DNA of 64,000 nt from positions 3,906,001 through 3,970,000 of the forward strand of contig JAYWIR010000004.1 in NCBI GenBank assembly GCA_036172245.1. Reading direction: 5' to 3'. Positions 49,300 through 62,729 of the stretch are shown piece by piece. The notes beneath the pieces were generated by a model that was not told the DNA's origin, did no database searches, and was given only the letters and a program-made list of their open reading frames with translations. This stretch comes from Raillietiella orientalis (taxonomy: Eukaryota). Positions within the stretch are counted from its first letter, which is position 1; each line of letters starts with the position of its first letter. The position numbers and the translations under genes are program-made.

Positions 49300-49853
49300 C
49301 AGTGTACAGCAAATCGCAAGAGCCGCTAGTGTTTGGCAAGCTTTCCTTTCCCGCCAAGTTCACTGGGAAAAGTTCAGCGCCCGCCTATTCCCGAATCGCA
49401 ATCGCGATCTCCGGGTGCGCGAAGCCGCAGATGCCATCAGCACGGTGGATGGGTTGGCATAGCTGCGACCACCACCTCAGCCGTCCGGTTGCGTTGCGTT
49501 CCACTTTCCGCCCCGCTCGCGCAGCCAAGCAGCTTGCGCGGCGGCACGCGTGGCAAGTGCTTTTCGTTTCGCAAAGCCCGTCGCCCCCCCCCCCCCCCCC
49601 GTCCCTGCCGCCCCGCACCCCATCAACGAAGGGGAACACGCAGATTTGCAAACACCCAAAAATTACTTCCCTCTATGCGGTCGCATCGCGCTTACGTATC
49701 CACCGAGCGTTTCCGTGTTGCGGGATGCGTGGTGCCGAATTCTTGGCATGCGTGTTTCCTTCTTGCAACACGCCCCGGAAGTCGTGTGACGGTGCTCGTG
49801 CCTGTCGCCTCTGACCGTGCAAGCATACATCTCCCGGATCGGAATTCGTGGAA
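49300..49853 (+). promoter_or_regulatory. CpG-rich promoter/5' region of SELENOK
   Basis: Abrupt GC- and CpG-rich block with a C17 tract (49584-49600), directly upstream of ATG 49854. Confidence 0.6.
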
Positions 49854-50580
49854 ATGCCTTACATAGATTCCAGTAAGTTGAACGCTCGAGTCCATGCGAC
49901 AACCAAACCGCGCGTTCGCACCCTTTTCAAAGTCCATCGGAAGACGAAACACGCAAAGCTGCAAGCGTCATCCGCTGTTGCAGTGCGAAATGCAGTGCGC
50001 CCGAACGAGTGAAAATAAAGATGCCCGCTAGCATCCCACTCCGTTTGCCCCGTTGCTAAAAACCTGTGTTCCAGGCGGCCGTTTGCAATCGTCCAGGCCA
50101 TGGAGCCTAGCCTTAATTACAGAGACCTTTTGGAGTGCTCTCCAGTTTGTTAGCCTATTGTGAGCATTGCTTTCATACATCTCGAGCGAAAGTGGAGTGC
50201 AATGCGGACTTTGCATGCAGTCCTTCCGATGCAAAAGTCTCTCGCGTTCGTTGTAATTCAGCACATTGTGCCGTGTGTATCAAATTCGTGAGCATTGTGG
50301 TGTGATTGGAGCATCAAGTGCACCCATCTGATTCCAATCCATGGTTATGCTTTTCAATTTGCAGCTTCCAGTCACTTTTCAACCCTACCTCCACATCCAA
50401 AAGACGTCCTGGATCAAGTGCACCTTACAGGAAAGGTGGCCAAGGGTAGTAATTGCGCTTGCATGCGCACGTTGCTCAAGCGATGCATTTTGCAGACCCC
50501 CTCCGGGTCCCAAACGCTTTGGGACCTTACAAGATGCACCCAGCGGCCCCAGTTGCTCTTTTGCTGGAGGATGACAATAG
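49854..50580 (+). CDS. SELENOK: Selenoprotein K, 89 aa, Sec88; exons 49854-49872, 50075-50159, 50365-50445, 50496-50580
   Basis: Spliced product: MPYIDSSGRLQSSRPWSLALITETFWSALQFVSLFFQSLFNPTSTSKRRPGSSAPYRKGGQGPPPGPKRFGTLQDAPSGPSCSFAGGUQ*. It has the SelK N-terminus (MxYIxxxG..RPWxL..I...FW), one TM helix and a G/P/R-rich tail ending AGGU. The three GT-AG introns have compatible phases. TGA is at 50572-50574, followed by CAA TAG. Confidence 0.95.
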
Positions 50581-50618
50581 TGCACACCCATCCTTGGGAT
50601 GGGGTCACGTTCACACCG

Positions 50619-50695
50619 ATCGAGTCTTTGGCAAATTGTGATGCTTTCTTGGTAAAACAGGGTCCGAGAAAGTGGAAGAGTGCTGAAATCTCGAT
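50619..50695 (+). promoter_or_regulatory. Type I SECIS element (GUGA form)
   Basis: Core GTGAT (50638-50642)/GGAA (50674-50677); helix II GCTTTCTTGG/CCGAGAAAGT (10 bp); apical loop TAAAACAGGGT; helix I TTTGGCA/TGCTGAA extended by ATCGAG/CTCGAT. Confidence 0.9.
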
Positions 50696-52689
50696 GCACC
50701 GATCAAGTTTCCCGAATGCAATTCAATACATTTCTAACAGAATCCAGGATTCCTGATGTTTTGGTTTCCTGCAAACAAATGTATCAGAATAGGAACTCTG
50801 CGAGTAGGTTTCAGCATTTCAGGAGAGCTTTGTCTTTCCACCTCCTCAGCTGGACATTGCCTTGAAACAAACCGAGCAGGTGCACCTGTACGGCGAACCA
50901 GTTGAGGATGACTTCTGATTGGCAAAGTTCCCACCTGCTGCATGGAGCTAGGTGGCACACTGAACAAAAGATAGGAAAAATTGCATTCCCGTCAAAGCAC
51001 ATTCTCTCAACAGAGAAATCTTTTGCGTGAAATGAGAGTATGCTTTTGCCAATTGCTCGCAGTCTTCCATTTCTGCACATTTATTCTGGCTCTCTTGCCT
51101 GCCCTACGATCGCCCCAATCCCTCTGCAATTGAATGGCTGTGCTGTGCTCACATCTCCCCCTCTTTCTGTGGGAAACACCGGGTCTCCACCCCATCAGCA
51201 ACTGCCAGCAACCCCTGACATTCTTCCAAAACAACTTGACATGCCACATGAGGCTTCTTGCAAACTTCATCAATCAAAATTCGTTCTGGACAACAGCAGG
51301 CACAAACAGACCCTCACTTTCAGCCACCATCGTGCGCTAACCCTTTTTCCATAAACGTCAACCGAATTTCGAGTCTTGCATGCAGTTGGTGCTAGGCAAC
51401 CCTCCCCTGTCACGTCTCAACAAGCTCCGCACGGAAGCTAACATGGGGGTAACACTCTGCAAGCCAAACAGAGTTTGTCGCATTCTTCCAGCTAAAACAT
51501 TTCTAGTTGAGTTGCAATCAGTCAAAATCACGTGCTCCAGGTCAACAAGAAAAACCCTAAGCACATTCGACCAAGCACAAGTTTGAAAGTTTGGGCCACG
51601 GTGAGCTTACAACTCTGCTTCAGTGCAAGAAGATAGAATGGCAACTGCTTTTCCTGAAGTTTGCAACCTCCTACACGTGCGAGCAGCATGCTGCAATGCT
51701 GATTTACCTTCAGCATCCCAAACAAGATCATGGAAAAACAACAAAGCACCTACATTGCAACCAATCCAAAAATTTACACCACACAGTACTTTGTGAGATT
51801 GCAAGCAGAACTCCGACCCGGTGACTCCGTGCTTACCTTACCAAACAACTTCACCTGAAGCAAGTTCTTATTCATCTGAAATTCCGAGAAATGATGCATT
51901 GCTGGAAGCAGTGCTTTGGCTTCATCCAACCAGTCTCCAAGCAATGCATCCAAACTTGAACCACTACTGGTCCACTTGTCCCTGTTGCTTGTCAGCACCA
52001 CCACCATGCACACCCACTGAAGCATTGCTGGGAATCATTCAAAAACCGATAGCTGTTGTCATCATCCTGCGGTGATGCAGCATGCATGCATTTCTCTTGC
52101 TACAAACGTGCATGCCGAAAATCCCCAGAGTACGATCCCCACCCATTACCCAAAAAGCAAATCATCACCTCTTTCTATCGCTTGCAAAATTGCCTCCATG
52201 AATTCCAAGCACAATCCACACTTCCAACCTCTCCGCAACCATTCTCTTTTCTTTTTCTCACTGACAAGCGAGAATGCTGCCAGCATTCACAAGATCCCAT
52301 CTTGCTCCAGCTACCTTTCCTCTTACCCATTTTGCAAAAACACATTCGGGTGACAGTGCAACCAGCCATCCCCAACCCAATCCAATTGCAACACCATGTG
52401 CCTCGTTTTCCACATGGCAATGAAAACCACTTCACAAGCGACAATGCAATCCCAATGTTGATGCAAACAGATTCCCTCTTGGCCCTTGGATGCAAACTAG
52501 CTGCTTGCTGGCTTCCCTCAAAGTCTGGAACATGCCCAAGACTCGAAAAAACCATGCACTTTGGCACCAGCAAGGCAGCAACCTCCTTCCTTCCCCTCTA
52601 TCTGGACGAACATACAAGCTGCATTCTGGGGAAATCCGTGCACTGGTCGCAGCGAATCACCATTTCCCCAACACTTCCCACCTTCAAGC

Positions 52690-53370
52690 TTATACGCTTC
52701 TGCGCACTTTCGATTCCTTCTTCTCACGAAGCGCCGCCAGTTGCTCTTCCACTCTTTTCTTATTCTCTTCCATGAACTTCCCGTATTCCACCGGGTCGTA
52801 CGAGTCCACCACTTCGATGCCCACGGATTTCGCAGTCCCCACGAGCAGCCTGCAAATCTCCTCTAAACTTTTCATTTCCAGGAAGTAGTCCTGCGACTTG
52901 ATTTTCGCAATCTCGTAGATGTGCTTTCTCGTCACTTTCCCAACCGTTTCTGAATTCGACGACAACCAAGCGATTAGCGCGCCTCCTCACCTACGCCATA
53001 CCATTCCCCATTCTTCCTCGGTTCACCCCGGCCGCCTGCATCAGCAAATACATCGACGGAGGGGAGGTGAAGGACATCTTGAAACTCCGATCGGGATTGA
53101 TCGTGATGAACGTGGGAACCGGAACTCCGGCCTTCACCTTTTCCGTCTTCTCGTTAAAATCTTTGCAAAATTGCGCAATGTTCACGCCACGCTGAAAGAT
53201 ACGACGTCCGCTTCTCCCGTTCTCTTCCCTACCTGCCCCAACATGGGTCCCAGAGGGGGGCCGGGGGAAGCCATTTGCGCAGGAATTAACGCCTCCAACG
53301 TATTCCCCACGTTTATTTTCGGCTTATTTCTCTTCGCGCTTTTCAAGCGCATAGCCAATTTGCTTGCCAT
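52690..53370 (-). CDS. MRPL11: Mitochondrial ribosomal protein L11 (uL11m), 195 aa; exons 53370-53233, 53191-53002, 52949-52690
   Basis: [29 protein letters not shown]...[12 protein letters not shown]...[16 protein letters not shown]...[15 protein letters not shown] introns of 41 and 52 nt with compatible phases. Confidence 0.97.
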
Positions 53371-54250
53371 CGCCAAACGCACACGCTTCTTCCGATTTTT
53401 CTCTTCCCAGCACGCACCTTCTGCAAAAAAAACGCACTTTCGATCGCACGAACCATCGCAACCGGAACCAACCACCCACCCCACGCACCTCGGCCGACTC
53501 CCCACCAGGGGAAACCCCTGCTCACCGCAACCGGCCATTCGCCTGCCTCCTGCCCAACCAAAACACGCACGCACCTCCAACACAACGCGACACCAGCGCA
53601 TCGCTTTCGCGCAACCACGGTCCAGCAACGTCCACGCGTGGGGGGCGGCAGCGTGGGCAGCCCACCCTAACCATACAAACCCACCACCACCCCAACCGCT
53701 CCACAACCACCACCATGCGCGCAGCGCGCCAACCGGCGCCCACCACCGACTCTCGCAGAAACGCAGCCAACGGCGGCGACTCGCTCTCGCGCATGCGCAC
53801 GCACCCCGCACGTGCGCCTGCAGCCCGGGAGGCGGCCGCGTTGCCGAGCAGCGGACCACGTGCGCGCCGCCCCGCGACAAACTCCGCTCGAAACACAGCC
53901 GACGCCAGCGCGCTGCCGCAGAACACTCTCCTGCTCACCGACCTGCCTCTGCTCGTTCCTGTCGCGCACTCCTCACCCAGGCGCGCATGCACCTGCAGCG
54001 CCGCTCCCGTCCCCGTGCTTTTGCGTTTCCATCCCAGCGCTGCGCACGCGACCGACCACCCTCGTCTTGAGGAGAGCGACCGGTATCCGTCCACCCGCTC
54101 CCCCGGAATGCTGCTCCTCCACGCTTACGCATCCCAGATCGCTCGCGTCTTCCTCAGCGGCCCGCTGTTGCTTTCGAACCGTCGCTCCTGAGACTCTGCC
54201 TCCGATGGGCACTCGAGGCAGCAGCAGCAGGCTGCGCATCCGCTCAGCTC
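53371..54250 (-). promoter_or_regulatory. CpG-island-like upstream region of MRPL11
   Basis: Very GC- and CpG-rich, C-skewed block immediately 5' of the MRPL11 start. Confidence 0.55.
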
Positions 54251-54299
54251 GCACTCCGAGCTGGTCACCAACCAGCTTGGTCATCCGCACCTGCTGGGG

Positions 54300-55300
54300 A
54301 AGGCATTTCTTGTAAAAAAATTAGAATCCGAATCGTAACATCAACAGAATCGTGGGTTCTACCACGCGCGAAGGGCTTGCCAGAAACCGGTACGCAGACC
54401 GGTGAGGTCCGCCCCAGTGGACCGAGAGAAACCCACACACACACATACGCAAAAAGAGAGAGGAAAAAAAAGGTGGGGTTCCTGGAGAGGGCAAGGAAGG
54501 GATCACTCTTCGGCTGGAGACGTCCTCTGCATCCTGTGCAGGATGCCAACATGTGCTGTTTTGACGTTTTCCAGGTGGGGCCATGCTGAGGCGGCCTTCG
54601 AAAAGATCCGCGCCCAGTGGATGGCATCCCTGCCATTTTGGCCTCTTCCTGCCGCGTTCCAGCATGCCGCGATTCCACGGACACAGAAGAAAACTGCTGA
54701 GGACGCGGCTGGCGGCAGATCGGTATACGCATGAGGAGACTGCCTCTGGCTTCTCCCCCCGGAGTTCCTAGGCTCGTCGAAAGACGATTCCGAAGGGGTC
54801 GACGGGCAGAGCAGTCTACCGATAAGTGCGGGAAGGTCTCCTTCTCGCCGCACTTTGCTCAATGGGCGTCGACAAGGACCTGCAGTTGCTCTTCCACTCT
54901 TTTCTTCCAAAAACTCTTCCCGTATTCAACCGGGTCGTACGAGTCCACCGCTTGGATGCCCACAGATTTCGCAGTCCCCACTTTGCTCAATGGGCGCGTT
55001 CCCCCTTGTCCATTGATGGAGGAGTGCTTTGCATGGGATTCCCCAATGCAACACTAGCAACGCCATTTCTTGCCACTTGGGGCCAGGTAGGCACCTTTCG
55101 AACACGTTGGTCGTCACTTCATCTCCTCCGGAGGAATCCGGAGCAGCTCGCACCAACTCCTTTCGGAGGCACACTCGGGTTTGCAGGACCCTCGAGCTGC
55201 CGAATCTTCTACGAACCCAAATGTTTCCACTGTTTGCCACTTCTTGGGACGTGAGTGCTGCATGATCAACGGGAGACGTGGGATGCTCTCCGTCGGTGTT
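54300..55300 (-). mobile_element. 3' portion of the L1/Tx1-like family element
   Basis: Zinc knuckle KCGEKETFPHLSVDC (~54812-54856). The C-terminus FCVRGIAACW...RDAIHWARIFSKAASAWPHL..GILHRMQRT is alignable with 24990-25170. T-rich UTR and hairpin at 54386-54403. Confidence 0.75.
54883..54981 (-). pseudogene. Duplicated fragment of MRPL11 exon 3
   Basis: Close copy of 52738-52842 with a few substitutions and a net 6-bp loss, flanked by the direct repeat CACTTTGCTCAATGGGCG. Confidence 0.95.
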
Positions 55301-59132: not shown

Positions 59133-62100
59133 TCAAAGCCACGTCTGCGTCCTGATGAAGGAGAAAACGGGGGTCGACTTTCCGAATTCCTCGCCTTCCT
59201 CGATAGTCTCGGGCAGGTGCTCGTAGAGCGTTTCCGGGAGCAGGACGGACGTGATCCCTCCAATCAGCATGAGCACGCCGAACACGATCAGAGGGATGAC
59301 TGTGTTCTCCTCGCCCTGGAAATTTGGAATCCTCGCCCCCGGGACCCTCAGCATGATGGGACTCACCAAATGCACTATGTACGGGAAGATGATGAGGCCG
59401 AGACCGGAGACGAAAGACGAGACGCCCATCGCCTGGCTGCGGATCACCGTGGGGAGCAACTCCCCGGCAAAGATGTAAATCGTCGCGAATGATCCGGACA
59501 CGCAGAACTTTCCGATCAAAGCCAGCAGCACGACCACCCAGTGATTTTCTGGAACCACCACCACCACCACCACCACCTTAGCATCGCGCGGGCGCAGTAG
59601 CAGCGGGAGCGCGGCAAACCTGCGGGCACGCTCATACAGCAGATGCAGATGACACCGCCAAAAATCATGGACGAACAGAGAGTCCATTTCCGCCCATAGC
59701 GATTTATGGCGTACCAGAAGAGGAAGGAGGCGGGGATCTGGAAAGAGGTTCACCCGTTCACGAGGAAACGGAGGCGATCCGCCGGCGGATGGTCCGCGAC
59801 GTCCTCGGTGTCCCCGAAATCCACCACCGCGGCGGGAACACGCGATGCGTGGCATGGAAGGGGGAGGGAAGCGCCTCCAGCAAGCAAGAAGCGTTCGAGC
59901 AGCGGCGGTGCGGGACTGCTCTTTGAGACCGCTGTCGCGCACTCGTGGAGGGGCGACCGAAGGCAAAGGGAAAGCGACGTTGGCTGCCCTTTGCGCCGCC
60001 CAAGCCATCTGGCCCGCCAGATGGCTTGGGCGGCTGGCTGGCGGGACCACGGGTGTGTGCGCGGCATCGAGGGTTGCCCTCAGGTGACTCATCATTGCTG
60101 ATGGAGCTCCTGGAAAAAACCGATGCCGAAGAGAACCGAGAAGACGTGGAAGCCGACAGAGGTAGCAACGCCACCGCAGCGACATTCCCTCAGCACTGAC
60201 GTGGACGTCCTCGGTCCTTTCTTCGCACATGGATGTCGACACCCTACGATCCGCGAACCGCCCACCACTCCGCGCAGTCCAGAAACGGCGAAGGGAAACG
60301 GAAGAGCAGCTGCTCAGGAAGAAGTCGCTTTCCTCTTTTGTCTTCTGGCCCGAGGAGCGGCTCTGAGATCAAACGCACCTAGGAGCCGACAGACAGATTC
60401 TTTCGAATCCGTCCGAAGCAGAGCCCTGCCGAAAAGACGGTCTCGAAAGGCAAGAGCATCTCGTTCAAGTGCTCTCCTTCGGGATCGTCCACCTCTGTGA
60501 ACTCTGTCCTCGCACCATCGACCCGAGTATTCAGGTTTCTTCCTTCGGATTCCTTCCTTCCCAGAGCCTCCGAGAAGGACTTTTCTCAAGAGAGAGAGGT
60601 TCACTTCTAGGAGCCGATAGGACGTCCCGAAACGGCCGATCGCTTCAGGCTCAAGGAAAGCTACCGAGAACGGTCGTTGTCGAGTAGCTGTTGCGTGGAT
60701 AAAGCAGGAACCCTGGGCGTGGATGGCCACCCCAGTCAGCCTGGAGGAGCTCGTGCATGTGCGGAAGAATTGGCATCTCCAAGGGATCTTGCAAGGTCAT
60801 CGGCCAACGTCGCTTCTCGGGATCGAACCCGATGCTTCATTCCTCCAGCTATTTCCGCAGCGGGACCCGCGCCTCGATCTCTTCATCCCTTCTCTCCTCT
60901 TCGAACTCGGTCCCTTTGATATCGTTCACGGCGTACCAGAAGACGAAGCTTGTTTCGTCTGGGCGTCCGGCGGATGGTGCACCCGTGTGAAGAGATCCCG
61001 GGCCTCCACCCTTCCAGGTGATCCTTTCTCCCTTCGCTCGCCAATAGCGCCTCCATCGAGCATCCTCCGTGAGTGGCCCCGTGACCGGAGACGAATTGCA
61101 TCACTCGACAAGCAGCGCTCTGCCGCTGCGAAGGAGGGAAAGAGACCTTTCGAGAACGGGGATCGCGAGGGCTCAGGGCAAGCACGGAGCGCGATCGCTC
61201 GCCCGATCTCCGTCCGTTCCCCGTCCACTGCGACCTCCCGAAGTTCACAATGCAATTGAGGTTCGGACGTGCGGGGGAGAGGGGGGAAGGAGGTCGGATG
61301 CGAGGCAGAGCCCAGGCGGAGACGCATGTAAAGCGACGCGACTGCAAGCAGCAGAGAGCGAACCTCCGCGCGCGGGCGGACGGACCGGCCGGCGGAGACA
61401 TTGTTTTGTTTTCTCCCGGCATCGCGGCTCCCGCGTTCGCCGACCGTTGGCTCGCGCGCGCCCGGTGTGACAGCCGGGCTGACTGCGAGGGACGCGTTCT
61501 CCCGGTCTCCTGCTCGCTCGCGCTCCGACGGAGATGCCCGTCTCGAACTCGGGGAGGATTTACCTACCTCGATGGCGGCAACAATCGCGAAAGCAAGGAA
61601 GTCCGAAATTCCCAGATTCGTGATGTTGTAGATGAGCCCGTTGTACACTGTGGCGTTGGTTAACCAGTTGAACGTTATGATCAGAAAGTTCTTCCTCAAA
61701 TTGGGGCTGCGGAGCACTGCCATGAGAGTGGGCTTTGCATCCAAAGCGCGGTCGTTGCTTGCTTTCCCCTCCTAACCATCGACCGATCGCTATGGTTAGC
61801 TTCCCGCCCAGGGAAGATGAGACGACTCACCGTGCTGCCCTGCAAGGCTGGCTGCCCCTAGAAAGGGAACCTGCAATCAGAGAAGAGTCGCGCCAGACAG
61901 TGCACCCGACCCGTGTCGAAATCGAAGGCTCTGGAAGGCTGAAGATCCAGTTTCCCAACTGGAGTCGAACCGACCTCCGTGCGCACCGACCCCGTGAGCA
62001 GCTCCCGCCCCAAGAAGCGAAATTACCAGCAAAATGAGCGAAAAATCTCTTGGGAGCTCCTTTTTGTTGTATTTCGCTATCTGCTGGATGACGATCTCGG

Positions 62101-62729
62101 CTTCTCGAAGTTTACCCTCGTTTATCAACCACCTAGGAGATTCGGGAATGATCCAGTAGTAGCTGCAATTCACTCCGATCGTAACACTCCCAGCTTCGAC
62201 CTACGCTGCAACTCACCCTAGAAGAACGAAAAAGGGGGTGGAAGTCCAGAAAATCAAACGTGACCAGTCGTTCACGAAGTAAGCTATTAGAGGCAGGATG
62301 CACAGGGAGGTGGCGAACACCATGCATATCATCATGGAGGGATAAGCCCGTTTCTTAGGTCCCATGAACTCCAAGACTGAGCCCCGTCTTTCCATCAGTT
62401 GGTGCGAAAGCGGAAACTCACCGAGGATGAAGGGTATCTGAAAGACTGCTGGGAACGTCAGCCCCCCGATGAATCGTAGAACGGTGTACACGTCGTAATC
62501 CGGGCTGAAGGACGTGCATGTCGCTACAGAGTATTGCAAGATCATGGTCAACAAGAACGACCGCTTTCTACCCCATCTGCAAGACCGAATCGTTAGTCGC
62601 TGCCGAAGACACGTACAACTGACACCGATCGGAAATCCATCCGAAAAGAATGTTCCCCATCAGGCTGCCGACGAAGAACGCGATGGTAGCTGCGAGAGGC
62701 CGCCATGCGTCATCGCACACCAAATCCAT
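59133..62729 (-). CDS. SLC22/Orct-type organic cation transporter, 5'-partial; exons 62729-62626, 62576-62422, 62376-62217, 62162-62027, (61857-61831 candidate micro-exon), 61771-61568, 59737-59620, 59548-59367, 59315-59133
   Basis: DLVCD, GWISDRWGRK, LRFIGG, PESPRWL, VYNGL, RYGRK, IGKF, ELLPTVIRSQAMG, LLPET and LPETIEEGE. All introns are GT-AG with compatible phases. Upstream exons were not found in the window. Confidence 0.93.
60340..61000 (-). mobile_element. Possible decayed BEL/Pao LTR-retrotransposon pol fragment in the SLC22 intron
   Basis: FWYAVNDI..EEERRDEEIE...IGFDPEKRRWPMTL and ALLRTDSKESVCRL..FD resemble the Pao pre-RT/RT start. In-frame stops are present. Confidence 0.35.

Follow-up and report, generated by a model that had tools for sequence, protein, structure and literature searches.

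Locus and gene model

The window, by which we mean the whole stretch of 64,000 nucleotides of Raillietiella orientalis DNA analysed here, carries on its plus strand four predicted exons separated by three GT-AG introns of 202, 205 and 50 nt (Table 1). Joined as predicted, these exons give a single frame of 89 residues, in which UGA is codon 88 and is followed by a Gln codon and a UAG stop (50578-50580). A predicted hairpin and a candidate SECIS element lie downstream, and the gene shares one arm of an inverted duplication with mRpL11.

Table 1. Positions of the features at the selenoprotein K (SelK) locus, in window coordinates
Feature	Position	Strand	Basis or remark
SelK coding exon 1 (19 nt, begins ATG)	49854..49872	+	sequence and gene model, predicted; followed by a phase-1 intron
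SelK exon 2 (85 nt): N-terminal motif and hydrophobic segment	50075..50159	+	PF10961, hydropathy
SelK exon 3 (81 nt): basic, Gly/Pro/Ser-rich tail	50365..50445	+	gene model
SelK exon 4, coding part: Pro-rich tail, Cys82, Gly-Gly-Sec88-Gln-stop	50496..50580	+	gene model
SelK in-frame UGA, predicted Sec codon, penultimate residue	50572..50574	+	frame of joined exons
Predicted hairpin immediately 3' of the SelK stop	50580..50608 (core stem 50587-50603)	+	RNA fold
Type I SECIS, candidate	50620..50694	+	pattern and fold; helix I from 50620/50627
AATACA downstream of SelK, possible variant polyadenylation signal	50725..50730	+	motif scan
Inverted duplication arm with SelK and mRpL11	49325..55237	.	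other arm at G000:C4:3977204-3983117, outside the window

Exon 2 carries the family assignment. Compared alone with the PF10961 (SelK_SelG) profile, it reached 23.4 bits against a cut-off of 23.3 (E 9.5e-5), a marginal score that covers model positions 7-33. A SelK profile search of the genome gave seven matches, the best two of which were both copies of exon 2, and SelK clusters ranked first for this exon in the ESM Atlas (0.84), which we treat as a lead only. An earlier note on this DNA had read the four exons as an 89-residue SelK-like protein ending Ala-Gly-Gly-TGA-Gln-TAG. This reading was borne out, with GT-AG at the predicted junctions and exon 2 at the Pfam cut-off. Scanned singly against Pfam, exons 3 and 4 gave no family match. 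Searches for SelK relatives with single-frame exon pieces returned 2 and 0 candidates, and a further one none at E 0.001; no relative was among them, the queries being too short to be informative, and a pattern search gave 598 matches with none confirmed. Locus L013 was considered as a SelK paralogue and rejected: its score lies below the cut-off, no SelK-like frame could be seen by eye and it has no SECIS match.

The predicted protein shows a single, modest hydropathy peak (1.08, residues 16-37). Its tail (residues 40-89) contains Gly or Pro at 18 of 50 positions, seven Lys or Arg and one acidic residue. Stopping at the UGA would remove only two residues. Cys82 (50554-50556) is the only Cys of the protein and lies six residues N-terminal to the Sec, with which it could form an intramolecular selenenylsulfide; we know of no equivalent Cys six residues before the Sec of human SelK. 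A run of about 16 C (49585-49600) is found within the duplicated arm, about 250 nt 5' of the SelK start.

The two duplication arms (5,914 nt) are 99.9% identical. They differ by two internal substitutions, both outside SelK, so that the SelK region is identical in both, and they flank a GC-rich stretch of 16 kb. Two smaller inverted repeats, 293 and 869 nt long, also lie inside, as does a 107-nt sequence that echoes the 3' end of mRpL11 (54883-54981). The duplication and its internal repeats suggest either a recent rearrangement or a misassembly. Since the six machinery genes described below were each found at one locus, the assembly is not doubled throughout. The duplication may still be a local misassembly. 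Between the arms, a multi-exon MFS transporter gene lies on the minus strand (59133-62700), with an MFS_1 match on one exon frame; we take it to be SLC22-like. In its last exon frame the mitochondrial ribosomal protein L11 gene, mRpL11, matched insect and crustacean proteins at 49-59%, compared with 38-46% for named molluscs, an annelid, nematodes and an echinoderm. The best match reached 67%, and the other exon frame discriminates less well between the groups. The BLAST ranks of mRpL11 make an arthropod likely as host lineage, and the genome is probably that of a non-holometabolous one.

SECIS element and genomic Sec machinery

The candidate SECIS element of SelK has a core in which G50638 precedes UGAU (50639-50642), facing GGAA (50674-50677) in a tandem G-A arrangement. 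Helix II (50643-50652 with 50664-50673) is paired at all ten positions, three of them G-U, and the apical loop of 11 nt exposes an unpaired AAAA (50654-50657), about 11 nt above the core. The predicted fold is stable (-26.1 kcal/mol, z -3.88), and none of 200 shuffled sequences was equally stable. All parts of the element named in the earlier note, the tandem G.A core, the 10-bp helix II and the apical AAAA, could thus be located within 50638-50677. The core also conforms to UGAN/KGAW, the SECIS core consensus (PMC3753652). A strict SECIS pattern matched once in the window, at SelK, compared with a mean of 0.8 matches over 20 randomised windows. As one match is expected by chance, the weight of the SelK element rests on its closeness (<100 nt) to the UGA. 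The Rfam SECIS models gave no match in the SelK 3' UTR, either at the gathering threshold or at E values up to 10. Run on the whole genome, RF00031 picked up the SPS element alone, which scored 23.4 bits where the cut-off is 35; the Rfam model is therefore insensitive in this organism.

We ran one SECIS descriptor on the 400 nt after each stop of the UGA-containing genes. It found an element 19-57 nt past the stop in 12 of 13 genes, missing that of SPS, and none in 12 Cys-homologue or unrelated control genes. The descriptor thresholds were chosen after the candidates had been seen, so that 12 of 13 is optimistic. In 134 kb of background, scanned on both strands, the descriptor matched 14 times, the two SelK copies included. 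A degraded Sep15-like copy on C43 was scanned without a match and left out of the count of Sec genes. Stop-to-SECIS distances are short in all selenoprotein genes examined in this genome (19-91 nt). Of 11 distinct SECIS candidates, those of SelK and two GPx genes have G immediately 5' of the core, and the remaining eight have A; the G-type element of the GPx gene on C31 is weak (z -0.07). A GPx gene on C1 seemed to end with a UGA lying 47 nt 5' of its SECIS; this reading was set aside, because the frame in which the GPx C-terminus runs on stops at a UAA, at 19 nt.

The earlier note had concluded that the organism retains Sec recoding and had proposed a genome search for the machinery. In support of this, tRNA-Sec (76.4 bits, anticodon UCA), SEPSECS, eEFSec, PSTK and SBP2 were all found, and SPS as well. 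PSTK matched with E 5e-25, under the family cut-off, and SBP2 was picked out by eye among seven L7Ae matches, using known motifs and a K-rich motif (PMC2673426). The sole SPS found (L030, G000:C34:1291255-1294362) contains an in-frame UGA and, 91 nt past its stop, a weak SECIS of the AUGA type; just beyond SPS lies the end of a convergent GPx gene of the Cys type. Eleven further genes contain a UGA at the expected site, namely TrxR, four GPx, three Sep15, SelT, SelH and MsrB1. The full machinery together with these genes leads us to expect Sec recoding in this genome. Searches for SelS, SelO and SelP gave no match in the genome, which is not proof of absence. A SelW-like gene (L031, G000:C18:218985-219200), intronless in its coding region, and a SelU-like gene (L066, G000:C17) have Cys in place of Sec and no SECIS match. 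The three intact Sep15 copies have near-identical SECIS elements, and the degraded one is a fourth (L032, L033, L034, L035; G000:C63, C89, C73, C43). Immediately after the eEFSec stop (L025, G000:C31:2150066-2153440) begins a ubiquitin-like gene, presumably of the UBL5 type. The K-rich motif of SBP2 (L051, G000:C21:699398-699705 region) is unlike the human and Drosophila versions, yet several type I candidates occur in this genome; the human and Drosophila motifs are described as governing type I SECIS binding (PMC2673426).

Since the main factors of the eukaryotic Sec pathway are all present, we infer SBP2-eEFSec decoding for SelK; its splicing, Sec insertion, location and function, which we infer as well, would run as follows. 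The protein encoded by the spliced mRNA would have 89 residues, with a single hydrophobic segment and a basic tail rich in Gly and Pro. As in the established eukaryotic pathway, the SECIS in the 3' UTR would be bound by SBP2 at its kink-turn core, and codon 88, the UGA, would be read by Sec-tRNA that eEFSec delivers; translation would terminate at the UAG two codons past the UGA. The distance from UGA to SECIS would just suffice for recoding, in a 3' UTR as compact as in all selenoprotein UTRs examined here. By analogy with mammalian work, the product would span the ER membrane once and take part in ERAD and in the palmitoylation of proteins.

UGA-SECIS spacing and the post-stop hairpin

Spacing is counted here in nucleotides from the UGA to the base that precedes the SECIS core, neither being included. 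For SelK 63 nt intervene between the UGA and G50638, and 45-52 nt between the UGA and the helix I base. This agrees with the earlier note, which had placed the core 64 nt after the UGA and had called the spacing short. The same 63 nt separate UGA and SECIS in TrxR (L058:1931-2062; G000:C20, UGA near 762838), the other penultimate-Sec gene found in the genome, which ends Gly-Cys-Sec-Gly-stop and has an AUGA type II element. The two genes are identical in layout: UGA, one codon, stop, hairpin and SECIS. In MsrB1 the distance is 151 nt in the genomic sequence and 82 nt without a predicted 69-nt intron. Apparent UGA stops near a SECIS were found at 25 nt in the GPx gene on C58 minus, at 29 nt in SelT and at 46 nt in the Sep15 copy on C63, which ends in UGA where its two paralogues have UAA. 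The SelT value depends on a predicted last intron of 45 nt with a weak donor (L064, G000:C41). If that intron were retained, the frame would first meet another UGA, at 83 nt, which would either be recoded or go against the spacing pattern, and the UGA at 29 nt would come second.

That UGA stops close to a SECIS reveal the minimum distance has been argued for Lokiarchaeota (PMC4989117). From Dio1 reporters the minimum has since 1996 been quoted as 51-111 nt (PMC3316567, PMC3753652), a range which includes the 63 nt of SelK, although its reference point may differ. Mammalian distances extend from 207 to 5207 nt (PMC3316567). In a partial literature search, the scope of which left out invertebrate distances, we met no natural eukaryotic UGA-SECIS distance this short, and we claim no record for SelK. 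With few genes and predicted introns, the present set would place the minimum between 46 and 63 nt, in the quoted range of 51-111 nt.

We consider it very probable that the locus is a functional selenoprotein K gene. This judgement draws on the layout of the sequence, the PF10961 match of exon 2, the predicted fold and the machinery genes. Two other readings have to be weighed against it. The gene and its SECIS might be real while the UGA, being too near the SECIS, mostly terminates translation and yields 87 residues without Sec, with Cys82 as a possible redox residue. A spacing of 63 nt is also found in TrxR, an enzyme for whose catalysis the C-terminal Sec is required, and this argues against termination. 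So does the stability of the SelK element, among the highest of the 11 examined (z -4.38), unlike the degenerate SelK elements described after Sec loss (PMC2500217). We regard termination as improbable, even though 63 nt (45-52 nt to the helix I base) is near the low end of the Dio1 range and mammalian distances begin only at 207 nt (PMC3316567). Alternatively, the exon model could be partly wrong, with another first exon or another intron 3 boundary, or the locus could be a silent duplicate. The short first exon of 19 nt, the purely predicted exons, the weak intron 3 donor (GTAGTA) and the two identical SelK copies would all fit such an error. However, three GT-AG introns preserve a single frame through Gly-Gly-UGA, and the Pfam match from position 7 begins at the start of exon 2, leaving six positions for exon 1. 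In addition, a first coding exon of 19 nt and intron phases 1, 2, 2 are also those of human SELENOK. A wrong model or silent locus appears to us less probable still than termination.

The shared layout of SelK and TrxR is a separate matter. In SelK the 40 nt from the stop fold at -16.1 kcal/mol, and 10 of 300 shuffled sequences were equally stable; the TrxR hairpin has 12 bp and folds at -18.0 kcal/mol, a stability reached by none of 300 shuffles. The same 40-nt fold gave only -2.0 to -7.4 kcal/mol in ten other selenoprotein genes. The control is weak, since most of these genes have little room for a hairpin before the SECIS. One may speculate that a compact genome has pressed the 3' UTRs to the limit of SECIS function, that SelK and TrxR converged on a 63-nt module, that UGA codons 25-46 nt from a SECIS serve as stops, that the switch between stop and Sec lies at 46-63 nt, which would narrow the 51-111 nt range, and that the hairpin positions the UGA or pauses the ribosome; we hold this to be possible but rather doubtful. 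It competes with coincidence, in which the identical spacing and the post-stop hairpins reflect no shared constraint, and to which we give even chances. Coincidence bears on the spacing idea only. It draws support from the small number of genes, two, spotted after the fact, from the generally short stop-to-SECIS distances of this genome, from the cramped controls and from the 3% of 1278 window 40-mers that fold at -14 or better. On the other hand, SelK and TrxR have the longest stop-to-SECIS distances apart from SPS, both have a hairpin where the ten other genes do not reach such stability, and hairpins of this sort are predicted in six of eight human C-terminal-Sec mRNAs (PMC6844570).

We therefore treat the common 63-nt layout, beside apparent UGA stops at 25-46 nt, as a small testable lead, built on two genes and two predicted introns. 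The account of how stop and Sec are told apart close to a SECIS still depends on a single reporter study and its broad range. Here, the genome offers natural test pairs, with Sec codons at 63, 63 and 82 nt (the last with a predicted intron) versus apparent UGA stops at 25, 29 and 46 nt, and Sep15 paralogues that differ by UGA or UAA at one site are ready reporter material. Such pairs would be of use for predicting selenoproteins and for designing minimal Sec cassettes.

Comparison with known selenoproteins

Sec-containing TrxR and GPx are described for non-insect arthropods (Strigamia maritima) and as absent from holometabolous insects (PMC4244043; further background in PMC4114682 and PMC2761289). 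Sec use is hence ordinary for this animal, and we dropped the view that its retention is surprising, as rich selenoproteomes are described in non-insect arthropods (PMC4244043). Raillietiella shares with Strigamia the full machinery and Sec-containing GPx and TrxR; it differs in that SelS, SelO and SelP were unmatched in our searches and that SelU and the SelW-like protein are in Cys form.

The SECIS element resembles eukaryotic type I elements of the GUGA_AA variant in its tandem G-A core, its helix II and its unpaired apical adenines. GUGA elements are reported from green algae and make up 12 of 21 sponge elements, that of sponge SelK included, while nearly all other invertebrate elements start with AUGA (PMC3473315). 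In contrast, G starts three of 11 candidates here, and the SelK element was missed by Rfam. GUGA is not special to SelK, as two other elements of this genome have it and the variant was already described (PMC3473315). Like the proximal stem loop of the mammalian C-terminal-Sec mRNAs for SelS, SelK and TrxR1, the SelK hairpin directly follows the stop (PMC6844570). It differs from the mammalian arrangement in that hairpin and SECIS almost adjoin, with about 11 nt between them. In the assay reported, the human SelK hairpin could be deleted without effect (PMC6844570).

The predicted protein agrees with known SelK in being short, in its N-terminal motif and hydrophobic segment that fit the Pfam model, in its basic Gly/Pro tail with Gly-Gly before a C-terminal Sec, and in the SECIS of its 3' UTR. 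In human SelK two residues follow the Sec. Here Sec is the penultimate residue, compared with Sec92 of the human protein, an ER membrane selenoprotein (PMC5981252). The SECIS is of type I here but of type II in human SelK (PMC6844570), and no intron 3' of the stop is needed, in contrast to vertebrates (PMC3316567). In kinetoplastid SelK the UGA-SECIS distance is about 200-1100 nt (PMC1557815), compared with 63 nt in Raillietiella. SelK from this genome is thus one more member of a family that is well known, and selenoproteins are to be expected in its lineage.
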